Source of the DNA: Thainema sp.
Lineage (GTDB): Bacteria > Cyanobacteriota > Cyanobacteriia > Phormidesmidales > Phormidesmidaceae
DNA length: 37,821 nucleotides
Direction of reading: 5' to 3'
Assembly (NCBI GenBank): GCA_052168235.1
Contig: JBQLZK010000067.1
Span: 1 to 37,821 of the forward strand
A program made the position numbers. This document shows positions 1 to 37,821 of the stretch, piece after piece. Each line of letters begins with the position of its first letter. The stretch's first letter is position 1.

Positions 1-3000
1 TATTCGCCTATCAAGGTGTGTCCAACATTGAGGACTTTAACCACCTCGAAGGCGTGACTAAAGCAGACTACAAGGTGTGGATTTTGGACGAGTCCCACAT
101 CGGCTTTCCCGATATGCGGAAAGAGAGCATGGTCATTGATGGCAAACCCACACAGGTGAAACGTCTATCGGATGTGATGTCGGTTGCGGCGACCTTTGGC
201 TGGCTGATCCTGTTCTGCACCCAAGCCCCCGATCGCAAGACGATTCACCGTCAGGTAGACGCCAAAATCGGCCATCGAATCGGCCTGTTGCTCCAGCGGG
301 ATAAGGATTCGGAGCTGGTCATCCAGCAGGCAGGCTGTGAGCGGTTGCTTGGCAAAGGCGATATGTTGGCCCGTCGCGGTGGAGAGGAGCCGGTGCGACT
401 GCAAGCCTACGACACATCCATCAGCGACCTGAAAGAGTGGTGCTTTCCTAAGATTGCCAAACTCACCCGCGACCAGAAACGCGATCGCACCTGTGAGTTA
501 CGCAACAAGGGCAGAACGCCTGCCTACATCATCAGCCACGTGTGGAACGTAACTGAAGGTGACGAGGGATGGTCAGCAGCACAACAGGAGTTTCTAGAGA
601 TAACTAAAGAGCTTCTAGAGCTGACCATTCAAGAACACCCTGAAAATCATCCCCCTAATAACGATTTTGGCGACAGCGGTGATTTTGCCGATTGAGTTGC
701 AATTGCAACCCTGAGTTGCAAGAAACCGCCAGAAATCAGCTCATAAGACTGTTTCAAGCTTTATCGGAGTTGCTCCGGTTTGCAACACCTCCTCTGCAAT
801 TGCTGCAACTGCATGCAAGGGGTGCAAATTCCGACCCAAAAGTCACTGGGTTGCAAGAAAAGTCGAAACGTTGCAAAAGCCTTACGGAGATTAAATCTCA
901 TGCCTAAACGCAAACGCCCAGCCACAACGCGAGTCCCTGCTTTAGTCGGTATGACTCAAGGGTTTCGCCAAACCGAAGTTGTGGACATGCTTGGTGCGTC
1001 TGATTACCAAATCAGCCGTGATTGTTCCTTGTTGTGGCCGAGCCGCCAACCTCATTCTGTGCTGACCAGAAATCAAGTTCGGACGGTGTACTGCGTCACG
1101 ATGTATCGCCACCTGGAATACAGCAAAGGCCGCCAGCAAATTCCTTCTACTGAAATCCTCGACTTCATCAACAACAGTACGGATGAGCAGATCTGGGCAG
1201 TCGTTGCGCTGGCTGGTGGCTCCACTGAGGATTGCAATGCTGGCATTGAGGAAATGCTGATGAAGCGCAACCAGCGCCGTATCCAGCAAGAAACCATCAA
1301 TGTATCTAGCACCGTCGCATAGGAAATTTTGACCCATGACCACGAACAATAACAAACCCGCTAAGACCGCAGACCAACAGGCCAGCCTAGCTCGTTCCGT
1401 CGATACCTCCAGCGCTGGCAAGATGGCGCGATCTCAGACTGCATCCAAGCCATATCGCCCTCCAGCCGTCCAGACTGAGAATCCAAATGTGAACGTAGAC
1501 GTTGAACAGTTTGAACCGGCTCAACTGGTACAAGGTGGAACTGAATTGGTTGATGCAGCCTTTGACGCTGCTGAACATGGGATGGAGAAGCGGTTCAAGG
1601 AACGCGGCCAGCAGCTCGTCAAACGCACTAACTACATGATGGCAACGCTGTTTAACGGCATGGCGGTTAAGGCTGGCAGTATCCGCAGTGCCTACATCAC
1701 TGCTCCAGATGAGGGTGAAGCCGATGAATAACGACATTGAGCAAATCCCTGACGAGTTTGATCCGACTCTTGCGATCGCAATTGGTCAGCACCTCGCCGA
1801 TCTTCAGTTTGATGTCGCGGAATCTAGCTATTCACAACGCCTAGACCAAAACTACAAAGGCTTTTGCCTTGCCCAGGCCAGCGATGAAGCGATGAGCCGA
1901 TACCTGGGAGAATATGTGGCCATTGTCCGACTCGACGAGCGGCTGCGGTTCATCGGTCGCACCCTCTTCTATGGGCTGCTGGTTGCGATCATTCCAGTGG
2001 GATGTGCGATCGCAGTTGGGATGAGCTTCTATTCTGCCCTGTTGCTCATTCCCGCGCTAATGGCTGGCATGTGGCTCGCCGCCGTAAATCACTGAGGACT
2101 ATCCCATGTGTGAACTGATTATCGGGCTTGCGATCGCAGCCATCATCATCAAATTAACGAGTCAGTAGTTAGCAGGCAGGGGAACCCGCAAAAGTAGCCC
2201 CTGCCCTATCTCCAGTAACAGAGACGAGGATATTATGAACCCAATCAATATCAACATCAATCTTCCCCATGACCAGCAGCGACAGTTACCTACCTCTACT
2301 CCAGTTGTTGCAGCGCAACCGCTGGCGCGACCGTCGCAGCCGATTCAGGCTGAACTGGTGGAGCCGCATGACCAGGTCGGAGTGTTTACCGTTCCTCAAT
2401 CGGGCATCAATTGGGATGCGTTGAGAGCTGCGATCGCAGCGACCTGCTTTTTTGTAGCGCTACTTCTGCTCATTCAGTCATTCAAACCGAAGCCGAAAGA
2501 ACCCACCCTGACCCAATCTCAGGTTGACGTACTACTCCAGCGAGAGCGATCACGATGGATGGCAGAGCAGCAAGCGCTAGAATACGAGCGGCTGAATTCT
2601 GAGTATCAAGGCTTCAAGGATGGGGTGATTTACAGTCAACCGTAGGCGCTATCCTATACACCAAATGAGTTTGATGATGCTCCGGTTAGTTGCCGGGGCT
2701 TTTTTATTATTCGTGTCGTTTCAGGTATAGCGATGTTTAGATGACGAAAATACCCTTTCGTCAGGTAAAACTCGGTAAACCTACTTTCACTGATAAAATG
2801 TTTCACGCTTTGCCTGAAGCATTGAGCAAAGCGCATTTGCCTTCCAAACCTATATTGGATGACTTTAGTCGCTTGAGTAACTTGTCTACTTTTTGAAGTA
2901 GGTTACCTTATGCTGTAATGCTATGAGAGACAACAGCGGAATTTAAGATCATAGGCCAATCTTGATTCAGCATGAACTCAAGATGCTTGCGGAATTGCTC

Positions 3001-36000: not shown

Positions 36001-37821
36001 GTTCCAGCGCATTCTCAATCTGGTGGCATAGGGTTAGTTGCTATGTATACCCACGAGCATAATCCTGAACTAGAGCGACTTAGAGCGTTGCAGGAATCTG
36101 CGATCGCAACTCCTCCCCATCCTGAAGTTCCGACTTGGAACTACCACACGATCAACCGAGCGGGTTCGATGTTCGGTCTGCTGTTCGGCAGTTGGATGTT
36201 TCTCACGTTCCTGGCTCGGCTTCTGCCTGACTTTGCGTTCATCTACCTGATTCTGACTGGAGCCGGATTACTGGCCTGTTTCTACGTTGCGATCGCAGGT
36301 CATCCCAACCTGTTCACGCTAGTTGGAATCACAGCCTTTGGCGTCATCATCGCCACGCTGCTGGCCAGTTGGGATCTACTTCTGGGGCTGTTCTATTACC
36401 AAGGCAGTCCCATTTGGAAATTCTTCATTGTTGCGATGGGGTTTGTCTTGAGCGTGGGTCTGTTTCGATTGTTCTTCAACATTCGACGACCCAAAGCGCA
36501 GCAACAAACTCCGGTCGAATCGCAGCAAACCCAATCCGAACAAGCCTATGACGCTGCCTGGCAAGCGTATTTGCAACAATGGACTTCTCAATCCACCGAC
36601 AATCCATCTTGATCTATCAAGCAGCGGGTGTGTTCGGACTGCTAATTGCCTCCTGGGGACGGCTTGATCCAACCGTCGTCACCCCGGCTGGTCAGCGGTT
36701 GCCGCATTGGGCGGTAACTAACCGTGCTCAAATTGCAGCCATCTATGCACCGGATAGCTGGTCAAAAATGGCTGGCATCATGATTGCGATCGCAGGATTC
36801 GGTAAGGCATACCAAACCAGCAAGATAGCCGAAAAAGACGAGCGGGAGCTGTTGCGCCAGCTCAATCATGAGTTGCGACTGCGAGCGGTTCGAGAGCAGG
36901 AAGAACTCCAGCGGCAACTGCTGGCCAGCTCCGAAATGCTCAAGATTGCTCAAGTGGTGGAGAACCTGCGAGCTGAAGAGAAAGGTGATGAGGAGATTGC
37001 CGCGATTCTCGGCATTGACGTAGCTGAACTGAAAGCGCTGGGTGCTCCCCAGCCGGAAGCGTTACCCGCTCAAGCCGTGTCACGGGAAAATGACACATCG
37101 GAGCCACGGATACCGAATCCGCCCGACGATCCAACCGTGCATGGACTTTTGCAGGCGACGCTGAAGGCACTTCACAAGGCAAATTACTATGCCGACTATG
37201 TGACCTGCTTCAAAGGGCCATCGTTCATCCAGTTCATCCTGGAGATGCGAGACCCGAAAAAACTACCAGAAGCCATTGATAGAACCCCATCAATCGTCCA
37301 GGCCAGTTTGCACCTGCCCAAACTGCCCATGTCAGACAACGAGCATGGTTTCTTATCCTTGTCGCTGGCACGACCCGACCGGGAGCTGCGGAAGCTGGCA
37401 GACGAGATTGACGATATCCCAGTCCCTAAGCGTCCATCGCTGTTCCTGGGTGTTGACCTAAAAGAAATCAGGCACTACATCCATCTGGACGGTAAAGAAA
37501 TGGAGGCCGTCTTAATCGGTGGTCTGCCCCGTGTGGCTGGCAAGACCAACCTGATCCGGCAGATGATCGGCTTCGCCGCCAAAAACTACTCATACCGTCA
37601 CATTCAGTTTCTCGTCTTTGACGGCAAAGGAACTGAGCTGAACCCGCTCAAAAATTCGCCCTATCTGGCTGAATGGCCATCGACCGCTAACCGCTTGGTC
37701 GGGCATTCAGAAGAGGACGCAGAATTGCAGCTTCAGTGGGTCGAGCAGGACATCGAAAACCGTCGCAGCCTATTCGCCTATCAAGGTGTGTCCAACATTG
37801 AGGACTTTAACCACCTCGAAG

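Follow-up and report, generated by a model that had tools for sequence, protein, structure and literature searches.

The analysed window is the whole 37,821-nt contig C67 of a Thainema sp. genome, and it carries a conserved block of 5.2 kb with seven co-directional genes that continues across the contig ends. The block opens on the forward strand with a gene for a 222-aa glutamine-rich protein without a TM segment (35363..36031), whose sequence composition suggests a coiled coil. It is followed by a gene for a 189-aa protein (36043..36612, forward strand) in which about four TM segments were read from overlapping hydrophobic windows. The 3' end of this gene overlaps by 34 nt the start of a gene for an FtsK/SpoIIIE-like motor, of which the N-terminal 414 codons lie at 36579..37821 and the C-terminal part at 1..695, both on the forward strand. 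After a spacer of 204 nt the same strand encodes proteins of 140 aa (900..1322), 131 aa (1336..1731; no TM segment and no family), 124–135 aa (1688..2095; the start is uncertain and overlaps the previous gene; two C-terminal TM segments by hydropathy) and 136 aa (2235..2645; one TM segment by hydropathy), the last gene of the block. A terminator-like hairpin of 8 pairs, 6 of them G-C, then TTTTTTATTA, lies at 2679..2709 (forward strand). The six non-motor proteins match no family at E ≤ 0.01 in Pfam or PHROGs, as a preliminary description of this DNA had stated, nor at E ≤ 0.001 in PADLOC. NCBIfam likewise assigns no family to five of the six and adds one weak match of the 189-aa protein, to AmaP (E 0.0057, 16.4 bits against a cut-off of 55).

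Divergent from the operon, a gene on the reverse strand (35032..35205) encodes a 57-aa ribbon-helix-helix protein (RHH_5 in Pfam, E 8e-14; Arc-like repressor in PHROGs, 7.2e-5), which is probably the repressor of the operon. A putative divergent control region lies at 35206..35362, with the direct repeat ATGGCTACC present twice (at 35280 and 35291), an inverted repeat (35238–35246/35281–35289) and a single TTGCAA at 35313, which has its matching place in the two other copies of the block, on contigs C87 (2456) and C9 (93115).

The first 51 bases of C67 (1–51) are identical to its last 51 (37771–37821), and this is the sole true terminal repeat among the 205 contigs, as had been described; flags raised on C199–C205 were rejected as artefacts of contigs shorter than the k range tested. 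Joining the ends gives a circle of 37,770 bp and, in frame, a motor open reading frame of 628 aa (36579 to 695) without an internal stop, so that the reported splitting of this gene over the contig ends holds. The junction 51-mer is also present exactly in C9, where the exact match to the circular junction of C67 extends over 59 nt. Overlaps between contig ends in the whole assembly peak at 53–55 nt. Since 55 + 55 − 59 = 51, the 51 nt are what an assembly graph with k = 55 leaves where one of its edges exits a shared repeat and returns to it, and a random cut of a circle was rejected as their origin. The earlier reading of the terminal identity as evidence of circularity is kept as regards closure, which we infer from the assembly graph, while the overlap itself is a graph product at the repeat shared with C9.

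The gene content given earlier for C67 agrees with Pfam, which identifies ParA, a tyrosine recombinase, HsdM/S/R of a type I restriction-modification system, a STAND protein with a TPR protein, and a 1713-aa protein with RNAse_A_bac at residues 1602–1711 (E 7.9e-10). ParA (196 aa; Pfam CbiA/VirC1/ParA) and a 146-aa partner form a separate partition pair at 17464..18494 on the reverse strand. The recombinase (182 aa; 16547..17095, reverse strand; Phage_integrase, E 6.6e-26) consists of the catalytic domain only and is a candidate multimer resolvase; its Xer-like NCBIfam matches are far under the cut-offs. A 530-aa protein with Pfam HTH matches at residues 218–252 (32205..33797, reverse strand) is a weak lead as a candidate replication initiator, its closest Atlas cluster being HTH_36 at a score of 0.89 against the tool's line of 0.9. 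Among the 35 ORFs of C67, Pfam finds no T4SS, relaxase, VirB4 or T4CP. Graph self-closure, the in-frame gene join (to the length class of the C9 copy), ParA, the small Xer-like recombinase, a GC content of its own (46.1% against 50.05% for the genome) and the lack of T4SS and relaxase together support C67 as a circular plasmid of about 37.77 kb of a filament-type cyanobacterium. Quite unlikely, by comparison, is a cointegrate, in which C67 would not be a free circle and would lie inside the FtsK-like gene of C9 (C9-left, repeat, C67 body, repeat, C9-right) with the 59-nt repeat on both flanks. The assembly graph at that repeat is compatible with both solutions, and recombination among the copies, which are otherwise about 14% diverged, is suggested by the exact runs of 98 and 59 nt that they share. 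However, the assembler ran C9 straight through the 59-nt repeat and also through the 98-nt one, which leaves self-closure as the remaining solution for C67; its own ParA and distinct GC, and soil metagenome runs that hold relatives of the C67 backbone on separate contigs, further argue against integration.

The motor is an FtsK-fold P-loop ATPase with intact Walker A and Walker B. FtsK_SpoIIIE (PF01580) matches at E 2.3e-12 (47.3 bits, cut-off 24) and phrog_1358 at 7.8e-33, which reproduces the values first reported (about 2e-12 and 8e-33). Its N-terminal part includes two weakly hydrophobic segments, a long helix (60–132) and the start of the ATPase with Walker A (GLPRVAGKT), and its C-terminal part Walker B (WILDE), the rest of the motor and a three-helix tail (554–600), for which neither Pfam nor PDB sequences gave a match. 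Hydropathy indicates weak membrane anchoring (best 17-residue mean 1.55). G321, K322, D427, E428, Q472 and R490 are invariant in a 9-row alignment of relatives, as are the GK[ST] and DE motifs, and in a 42-row alignment the two motifs and K322, D427, E428 and R490 are conserved in at least 90% of the rows. In Foldseek the AlphaFold2 model (pLDDT 82; residues 1–32 of low confidence) is best matched by the FtsK alpha-beta motor 2ius (E 6.6e-25), with TcpA (2.7e-16) and then EccC (8e-11) as runners-up; the predicted fold is nearest to double-stranded DNA translocases and away from T7SS ATPases. FtsK/SpoIIIE structures (2ius, 2iut, 6t8b/g/o) align over about 395 columns (TMt 0.76), with conservation of both Walker motifs and of the arginine position. 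Identity is nevertheless 20–22%, Walker A has a one-residue insertion, the Ftsk_gamma domain was not detected, and the N-terminal 200 or so residues are modelled as a coiled coil where FtsK/SpoIIIE have four TM segments and a linker. Unlike those chromosome translocases, the motor is found on accessory replicons, in three copies.

The spacer between the motor gene and the 140-aa gene is filled by a repeat array (693..899) that is conserved across copies. A 14-bp palindrome, GTTGCAATTGCAAC, lies on the motor stop codon (696–709), and TTGCAA/TGCAA half-sites (6 TTGCAA, 10 TGCAA) run from it to the next start codon. Six of the 21 TTGCAA in the window fall in a stretch of 180 nt here, and a density of at least 5 per 220 nt occurs only here and at the C9 counterpart in the 7.54-Mb genome. 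Of 56 motif columns 39 are invariant, against 47 of 148 columns elsewhere in the spacer (Fisher p 1.4e-6), and the C87 palindrome has changed symmetrically (TTGCTA|TAGCAA). The preliminary statement that clt-like repeats are lacking therefore has to be replaced by that of a conserved array immediately behind the motor gene.

The 140-aa protein encoded next to the array is predicted to be a MerR-like winged-helix protein (residues about 20–106) with a long C-terminal helix (AlphaFold2 pLDDT 82). The top rows of VIA-align are MerR-type DNA-binding domains (3qao, Z 6.5; TnrA, 5.7; RacA, 5.6; pSK1 Par, 4.4); these scores are middling, and Foldseek gave no match at E ≤ 0.001 (best E 0.19). Its relatives form 16 clusters of 53–100% identity, and alignment demonstrates that the N-terminal, helix-turn-helix half is variable and the C-terminal half conserved. 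From the model, we consider it the probable repeat-binding protein.

Searches with tblastn confirmed that C67, C87 and C9 have the seven-gene block in common, at 64–97% protein identity. Against C87 and C9 respectively, identity is 96 and 96% for the 222-aa protein, 90 and 90% for the 189-aa protein, 67 and 64% for the 140-aa protein, 97 and 83% for the 131-aa protein, 96 and 90% for the 124/135-aa protein and 87 and 85% for the 136-aa protein; the FtsK-like protein is 97 and 91% identical to its two pieces in C87 and 94% to C9. The RHH_5 gene had been included at 65–97% but reaches 31% against C9 and 36% against C87, and is common to the copies by position and family only. Residues 304–351 of the FtsK-like protein are absent from C87, in line with the roughly 50 codons reported missing between its ends. 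Each C87 end is an exact 55-mer common to C67 and C9. For the same reason as in C67, C87 is plausible as a second replicon, as had been proposed, and it encodes ParA beside a TacA/GNAT pair; its putative circularity derives from the split gene. A chromosomal island on C9, by contrast, was not established: C9 looks like accessory DNA, and no replication genes were identified near its copy. Comparison of the copies shows purifying selection on each of the seven genes (dN/dS 0.03–0.15; 222-aa gene, 0.04–0.07; 131-aa gene, 0.03–0.08). Most have dS of 0.55–0.85, with higher values for the 131-aa gene against C9 and the sister genome G001 and saturation for the 140-aa gene, the most diverged of the block. 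DNA similarity of C67 to both copies stops at about 2653, and the cargo of the three replicon-like contigs is unrelated; the block behaves as a backbone of replicons with different cargo.

The rarity claimed for the motor is borne out: among 41 genomes, strong matches occur only in this genome and G001 (next best E 2.2e-18, 27% identity). The 222-aa protein matches 6 of 401 genomes including these two, with weak full-length homologues (20–28%) in four other cyanobacterial genomes. Other cyanobacteria, G081 (two copies) and G358, have distant syntenic modules in the order 222-aa-like gene, 4-TM gene, 2-TM P-loop ATPase, spacer, 140-aa-like gene and small TM genes; homologues of the 189-aa protein (L029:1414–1884, E 1.4e-6) and the 124–135-aa protein (L027:9983–10513, E 1.6e-8) are among their products. 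Their spacers open with a palindrome at the stop codon of the ATPase gene, after which a different half-site (GTAGAACG, GTAGCAYG) is repeated, and in L027 all 7 TAGAAYG matches of 18 kb lie within 174 nt. The layout thus appears older than the sequence, as gene order and palindrome-led spacer are kept and the repeat motif has changed.

We favor, at a probability of about 45%, the reading that the block forms a single operon encoding a replicon-addressed pump for double-stranded DNA, which would work like Streptomyces TraB/clt/Spd but lie outside that family. In the part of the pSVH1 account drawn on here (PMC4447253), the motor C terminus reads clt repeats, and 3–7 diverse small spd genes, a 4-TM pore protein among their products, form an operon with overlapping stops and starts. 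As far as that source goes, pSVH1 and pIJ101 resemble C67 in a lone FtsK-like motor whose C-terminal part serves, or in C67 may serve, DNA recognition, short repeats acting in cis as a block next to the motor gene, several small unclassifiable proteins (one with 4 TM segments) with overlapping stop/start codons, a divergently acting repressor, the absence of relaxase and T4SS, and a multicellular, filamentous host; HetR is present in the genome studied here. The transfer analogy drawn earlier is strengthened by the conserved array that follows the motor gene at once and by the probable DNA-binding protein encoded after it. It is still an analogy: of 72,556 plasmids, 6 records match the motor at E ≤ 1e-8 (tblastn), all below 32% identity and none from Streptomyces. 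The C67 repeats are a 6-bp palindromic motif led by a 14-bp palindrome, whereas clt is described as 8-bp direct repeats; a MerR-like protein adjoins the C67 array in addition, and the regulator is an RHH protein instead of a GntR-type TraR. The host envelope is of Gram-negative type, unlike that of Streptomyces, the DNA would have to cross two cyanobacterial envelopes, and no peptidoglycan hydrolase is present. TcpA coupling proteins of Firmicute conjugation (pCW3, 6o1x/6o1z) are the second-best structural family, but C67 is without the VirB4-like, VirB6-like, hydrolase or relaxase partners.

Segregation also fits, and would make the 140-aa protein and the array a centromere similar to that of pSK1 Par or RacA, the motor clearing the closing septum of plasmid copies or pumping them through it, which would let both filament daughters inherit the replicon; we regard this as possible, if somewhat doubtful. 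Both proteins (8csh and 5i41) are among the structural neighbors of the 140-aa protein and share its predicted winged helix, long helix and repeats upstream of its own gene, a layout that, by analogy, also suits a partition system. Apart from the module copies, nothing in the genome passes the FtsK_SpoIIIE cut-off, and purifying selection in every copy would be expected of maintenance. Yet Z values in this range are common for helical models, sequence matches to Par or RacA are lacking, and the 140-aa protein, unlike these two, is embedded in what would be a DNA-pump operon. C67 and C87 each already have a ParA system, septal clearing would not be expected to involve four additional small proteins, of which three are membrane proteins, no replication genes were seen near the C9 copy, and the 140-aa profile matches 4 of 401 genomes although most cyanobacterial plasmids must segregate.

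The array could be merely an operator for the downstream genes. That it serves only autoregulation by a 140-aa repressor, with the membrane ATPase doing other work such as protein export or exclusion of and defence against incoming DNA, seems unlikely. MerR-type proteins are mostly transcription factors, TTGCAA recurs in the operon control region of all three copies, in PADLOC the motor matches best to the FtsK-like part of SspH (E 1.8e-15), and defence genes abound on C67 and C9. At least 6 half-sites and a palindrome nevertheless exceed the needs of an operator, the block is shared by replicons of differing cargo, and the motor, nearest to DNA translocases in fold, carries a single ATPase domain and reaches 23–27 bits with EccC/EssC models in NCBIfam against cut-offs of 346–778. 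Membrane-containing phages have FtsK/HerA-type packaging ATPases with small membrane proteins, which together with phrog_1358 would allow the block to belong to a membrane-containing, plasmid-like virus, the motor packaging its genome and the small proteins residing in the virion membrane. This is very improbable: Pfam detects no capsid, portal, terminase or tail family in the 35 C67 ORFs, the small proteins have no PHROG match, IMG/VR holds no relative, and the 18 matches among 50,697 phage records (22–28% identity) are all FtsK-like morons of Bacillota phages.

In the favored DNA pump, the RHH protein would keep the operon repressed, and dimers of the 140-aa protein, the motor tail, or both would bind to the TTGCAA array on the replicon that encodes them. 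Through its conserved C-terminal half, the 140-aa protein would pass this DNA to a hexameric motor, which the membrane partners would hold at the membrane or septum, and ATP hydrolysis would move unprocessed duplex into a neighboring cell, between filaments or along a filament. By descent, the system is a separate, rare cyanobacterial lineage and not Streptomyces TraB; by analogy, the operon looks like an undescribed machine that moves the plasmid's own DNA.

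The module that holds the FtsK/SpoIIIE-like motor gene occurs on three contigs of the genome. tblastn and blastn placed it on C67, a probable circular plasmid, at 35294->2653 through the join of the contig ends, on a second contig, C87, at 19979-22788 plus 1-2480, and on a third, C9, at 88117-93129. The preliminary description had assigned eight genes to the shared block. Seven of them are common to the three contigs at 64-97% protein identity, but the divergently read RHH gene is only 31-36% identical and is common to the copies by position and family only. Pairwise Nei-Gojobori comparison of the copies gave dN/dS of 0.03-0.15, and dS was 0.55-0.85 for most gene and copy pairs (for the 131-aa gene 1.38 against C9 and 2.2 against the sister genome G001), values which indicate that the copies are old and that each has been kept by selection. 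The 140-aa gene, with a saturated dS and a dN of 0.19-0.31, looks like an older or an exchanged allele. The HIP1 element (GCGATCGC) is denser in the module (1.75 per kb) than in the genome as a whole (1.19), and the remainder of C67 has 0.49 per kb. A terminator-like hairpin at 2679-2699 marks the end of the block. In the sister genome (locus L019 on contig G001:C139), an insertion of about 1.1 kb at 5434-6544, encoding a 163-aa HTH protein, lies between the 222-aa and RHH genes.

The motor gene (36579->695 through the join) encodes a protein of 628 aa. Its FtsK_SpoIIIE domain, already noted in the preliminary description, was recovered at 47.3 bits against a cut-off of 24 (PF01580, E 2.3e-12, residues 296-507), as was the match to phrog_1358 (E 7.8e-33), and the best match in a PDB sequence search was FtsK 2ius (E 4.8e-8). 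With an AF2 model built on a 42-row alignment (pLDDT 82.2), Foldseek returned FtsK motors first (2ius, E 6.6e-25, TMt 0.76), then TcpA (2.7e-16) and EccC/EssC (8e-11 and weaker). The traits of the PF01580 family are present in the protein, namely Walker A and B motifs and, in the model, a RecA-like alpha-beta motor fold. Both motifs (GLPRVAGKT and WILDE) are invariant in nine aligned relatives and at least 90% conserved in the 42-row alignment; the same holds for G321-K322 and D427-E428. The N terminus includes two weakly hydrophobic segments (9-26 and 64-78; best 17-residue Kyte-Doolittle mean 1.55) and a long helix (60-132). In the C terminus, where the family has a gamma-type winged-helix domain for DNA recognition, three helices are modelled at 554-600, and residues 540-617 gave no Pfam or PDB sequence match.

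The motor is rare. A word search of 5.8 billion proteins found two clusters, and four representatives among 1.84 billion reached E ≤ 1e-30 (73%, 32%, 37% and 31% identity); 72,556 plasmids and 50,697 phages yielded no close relative. Metagenome contigs added two weak loci at 25-33% identity, and among the genome contigs searched for the context of close relatives the sister-genome contig stood alone. FtsK_SpoIIIE exceeds its cut-off in this genome in the module copies only. The genome also encodes HetR, a marker of filamentous cyanobacteria. FtsK-like genes of about 700 aa in four other genomes (G005, G012, G019 and G034; 24-27% identity) are accompanied neither by the small proteins nor by a downstream repeat array and were set aside as a different lineage.

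Directly 3' of the motor gene lies a repeat array, which the preliminary description had missed in stating that no clt-like repeats are present. The spacer of 204 nt that separates the motor stop codon (693-695) from the start of the following gene (900) begins with a perfect 14-bp palindrome, GTTGCAATTGCAAC, and contains six TTGCAA and ten TGCAA. TTGCAA is about as frequent in the window as chance predicts (21 copies, 19.5 expected); it is the clustering that stands out, with 6 of the 21 copies within 180 nt. The genomic rate of TTGCAA is 0.27 per kb, and nowhere in the genome except in this spacer and in the matching one on C9 do at least five copies fall within 220 nt. When the spacers of C67, C87, C9 and G001 were aligned, invariant columns made up 39 of the 56 in the motif and 47 of the 148 outside it (Fisher p 1.4e-6); in this comparison C9 and G001 are closely related, and it was on C67 that the motif had been defined. 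The C87 palindrome, GTTGCTATAGCAAC, is changed in both arms with the dyad kept. Between the motor and 140-aa genes a pattern scan found no promoter-like site on the plus strand; two sites turned up in 3 kb, where 2.7 were expected, and both are at 2227-2260 on the minus strand.

The gene that follows the array encodes the 140-aa protein, of which 16 clusters were found at 53-100% identity, all of them about 140 aa long and encoded on contigs no longer than 50 kb. Its N-terminal half, in which a helix-turn-helix lies, is variable and its C-terminal half nearly invariant. For its AF2 model (pLDDT 82.2) Foldseek gave no match at E ≤ 0.001 (best E 0.19), and the weak matches listed are mostly MerR-type regulators and RacA. 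VIA-align, which is independent of Foldseek, placed MerR-type DNA-binding domains in 10 of its 15 top rows (3qao, Z 6.5, rmsd 2.7 over 81 residues; TnrA 5.7; RacA 5.6; GlnR 5.4), although a Z below 8 can reflect a common arrangement. MerR-type proteins combine a winged helix-turn-helix with a long dimerisation helix behind it. Pfam gave no MerR match for the protein; from the model, a MerR-like fold is probable. An Atlas search with the 222-aa protein produced no lead (best 0.87, to unnamed clusters, at a recognition of 1444).

Modules of the same layout were found in more distant cyanobacteria. The 222-aa protein has weak full-length homologues in four further genomes, so that 6 of 401 genomes matched in all, and the 140-aa profile matched in 4 of 401, with two copies in G081. 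On G081:C74, G081:C30 and G358:C1 the order is a 222-aa-like gene, a 3-4-TM gene, an ATPase, a spacer, a 140-aa-like gene and small TM genes; the ATPases are of 446-458 aa, with two TM segments and the P-loop SATGTGKS. On G072:C16 the first three genes only are syntenic (a 221-aa protein like the 222-aa one, a 3-TM protein and a 554-aa ATPase with the P-loop APTRCGKT); a 140-aa-like gene was not found there and the downstream region holds no evident array. None of the distant ATPases matched Pfam; their alignment with the FtsK-like profile (hhalign E 2.7e-4, probability 42%) begins at Walker A and reaches the sensor region. The spacers in G081 and G358 begin with a palindrome placed on the ATPase stop codon (GTAGCACGCCCATGCTAC, GTAGCATGACATGCTAC and GTAGAACGTCATTCTAC), and the half-site is repeated before the next gene; at locus L027, all seven TAGAAYG matches of 18 kb lie within 174 nt. 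The unit of palindrome and half-sites between the ATPase and 140-aa-like genes is therefore conserved while its motif changes, as a protein-DNA recognition pair behaves. Since the ATPases of L027 and of L029 (G081:C74) are without the C-terminal tail, the 140-aa-like protein is the more likely reader of the array at these two loci. The layout of the module is thus older than its sequences. A 384-aa PspA/IM30-family protein is encoded at 7643-8797 of L029, 2.2 kb downstream of the distant module.

The reported circularity of C67 was re-examined in the assembly (7.54 Mb in 205 contigs). The first 51 nt (1-51) are identical to the last (37771-37821), and C67 alone among the 205 contigs has a true terminal repeat, the flags that the script raised for C199-C205 being artefacts of contigs shorter than the tested k. 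The motor gene, split over the contig ends, reads through the join in frame, and the circle measures 37,770 bp once the duplicate 51 nt are dropped. The terminal 51-mer has an exact second occurrence in C9 (at 90616, minus strand), and the match between C9 and the closed junction reaches 4 nt further on either side, to 59 nt. Overlaps between contig ends are concentrated at 53-55 nt throughout the genome's contigs (92 at 53, 76 at 54 and 88 at k=55), which points to a k=55 de Bruijn graph. C67 is therefore a graph edge that leaves and re-enters a repeat common to the C9 copy of the motor gene, and the self-overlap is of 51 nt because the edge runs from the last to the first 55-mer of a 59-nt repeat (55+55-59 = 51). 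C9 was assembled straight through this repeat and also through a 98-nt exact repeat (C67 37512-37609), which leaves self-closure as the path consistent with the graph for C67. Closure appears a sound inference from the assembly graph, short of read-level proof; none of the Logan contigs placed on C67 was shown to span the circular junction.

Each end of C87 is a 55-mer that recurs exactly in C67 (37434-37488) and in C9, and its gap of 143 nt falls in the Walker A region of the motor gene, where the copies are identical. Both contigs break in the most conserved gene because of these inter-copy repeats and not by chance. The exact runs against C9, of 98 nt (37512-37609) and of 59 nt (37767-37821 plus 1-8), lie in copies that differ at 14.1% of a 2,516-nt block, with a synonymous divergence of about 0.7. 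Such runs point to occasional recombination between the copies, and they are likely products of gene conversion between co-resident copies and the cause of the assembly break.

C9 had been described as carrying the module on a chromosomal island, which was not established. The contig holds no tRNA gene, and none of 15 ORFs (each 250 aa or longer) sampled in three stretches of 20 kb is a core housekeeping gene. The sample comprised metal efflux and resistance, sensor kinases, RT-Cas1, Cas4-Cas1, a Y-family polymerase, a nuclease and a 2881-aa adhesin, with 3 of the 15 ORFs in no family. Type III RAMP genes lie directly upstream of the C9 module. Beside the module, C87 and C9 have two further genes in common, one of which is frameshifted in C9. 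From this content, C9 may belong to a large accessory replicon and not to the chromosome.

The gene content listed for C67 in the preliminary description was reproduced by Pfam. The plasmid (46.1% GC against 50.05% for the genome) encodes a GT4 glycosyltransferase (2908-4107, minus strand), a 182-aa tyrosine recombinase, ParA, an HNH protein, and HsdM, a PIN pair, HsdS and HsdR. A 1713-aa protein (4688-9829, plus strand) includes DUF4114, PPC, a weak leishmanolysin-like stretch and a C-terminal RNAse_A_bac domain (CdiA-CT-type RNase A); it looks like a plasmid-borne polymorphic toxin, without an identified immunity gene. A 390-aa protein (10178-11350, plus strand) has no Pfam family and matches a PADLOC CARF+WYL (Csx1-like) model at E 6.7e-37; its gene is on the plasmid, while type III RAMP genes adjoin the module copy on C9. 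A STAND NTPase (AAA_16, nSTAND1, NB-ARC) followed by a separate TPR protein (11760-14602, plus strand) lies in a patch of 31-40% GC, the most foreign-looking part of C67. What is probably a broken transporter gene at 14626-16070 (plus strand) consists of a 239-aa BT1-family fragment, the profile of which has 432 positions, and a 146-aa MFS_1 fragment. About 590 nt at 19536-20122, with a 108-aa ORF inside, are 67-85% identical to sequences on C143, C117, C58, C60, C35 and C69 and represent a multi-copy element or a gene family. Two segments of about 140 nt each, at 2660-2797 and 11594-11733, are 83-88% identical to C9 (10353-10487 and 148687-148827) and to C44; they are small dispersed repeats, the first of which holds a 27-nt inverted repeat. 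A 704-aa protein without a Pfam family (29561-31675, plus strand) weakly matches tyrosine integrases at its C terminus (phrog_1, E 1.4e-4, residues 551-654). No recognised Rep family was found on C67, a 530-aa HTH protein being only a weak lead.

Logan contigs from soil-metagenome runs of several studies, a count that leaves out one run which is possibly the source, include relatives of the C67 backbone. In one such run (X1), a 3,780-nt piece covers C67 28846-32625 with 54 differences, and in another contig the hsdS region is replaced. The hsdM-hsdR stretch at 22274-25442, in which an 86-aa gene and a PIN gene (VapBC-like) lie between hsdM and hsdS (22405-23090), is partly replaced in a related contig of that run (record 3), which suggests swapping of the specificity region. 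Summed word depth in X1, which is not a copy number, is higher in the module bins than in the backbone.

Taken together, the parts of the module would form a machine for recognising the replicon that carries it and for linking this replicon to a membrane-associated dsDNA motor. The closest comparison is the TraB/clt/Spd system of Streptomyces, by which plasmid DNA passes from cell to cell as an unprocessed duplex. In passages of PMC4447253, clt is described as direct 8-bp repeats near the motor gene that are read by the C terminus of the motor, and the spd genes as 3-7 small and diverse genes with overlapping stops and starts that include membrane proteins. In the module the array is directly 3' of the motor gene, but its motif is a 6-bp palindrome and its binder is only predicted. 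The likeness to Spd lies in the arrangement alone: three of the six small genes encode TM segments, the 189-aa gene runs 34 nt into the motor gene, and a further overlap joins the 131-aa and 124/135-aa genes. A sequence relation of the motor to TraB of actinomycete plasmids was not found: tblastn (E ≤ 1e-8) against 72,556 plasmids hit six records (two each from Hymenobacter and Listeria, one each from Rossellomorea and Anoxybacillus), none of them from Streptomyces. The divergent regulator is of the RHH_5 type, whereas the TraB system has a GntR-type repressor, TraR, in a Kil-Kor pair. Because sequence and regulator type differ, we regard the module as working, by analogy, like TraB/clt/Spd and as lying outside the TraB family. 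The T7SS ATPases EccC/EssC have two or three FtsK-like domains, unlike the motor with its one ATPase domain, which scored 26.8 bits against a cut-off of 346.6 for TIGR03925 and 22.6 against 778 for TIGR03928. In the open full-text literature we found no description of an FtsK/TraB-like transfer module in cyanobacteria.

We rank first the possibility that the module serves intercellular transfer or spread of DNA in the manner of TraB/clt/Spd, with a probability of about 0.45. A segregation device similar to pSK1 Par or RacA, combined with septal pumping, comes second and is rather unlikely; the pSK1 Par centromere-binding domain is itself among the VIA-align matches of the 140-aa model, at a Z of 4.4, where a common arrangement could also account for the match. 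The array could instead be an operator only, with the ATPase in another role, an explanation that we consider improbable; the divergent control region does hold one TTGCAA in all three copies. Virus-like packaging, the phrog_1358 match of the motor notwithstanding, is the least credible of the four: no close relative of the motor was found among 50,697 phages, and a search of IMG/VR gave none.

Extended beyond this plasmid, transfer as the preferred reading leads to a more tentative and somewhat doubtful proposal, that filamentous cyanobacteria have a T4SS-independent dsDNA transfer in which one FtsK-like pump moves plasmids and islands of 20-50 kb, a per-replicon palindrome/half-site array with a fast-evolving MerR-like adaptor lets several of them coexist in one cell without cross-talk, and the whole is convergent with, or anciently related to, Streptomyces TraB/clt/Spd.

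The movement of plasmids among cyanobacteria is poorly understood. No relaxase, VirB4-type ATPase or type IV coupling protein was found in the 35 ORFs of C67 (Pfam, E ≤ 0.01) or the 21 ORFs of C87 (E ≤ 0.001), and the two replicons, lacking these usual relaxase and T4SS genes, would therefore be typed as non-mobilisable. If duplex DNA does pass between cells by means of the module, single-motor conjugation would cease to be a peculiarity of actinomycetes, and soil and crust cyanobacteria would have a concrete set of parts for gene flow (a motor, an address site and an adaptor) on which transfer tools for them could be built. Should segregation be its role, the module would reveal how plasmids are kept across septa in a lineage without FtsK. 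On either reading, the array and its variable binder would be a specificity module through which three related replicons can live in the same cell.
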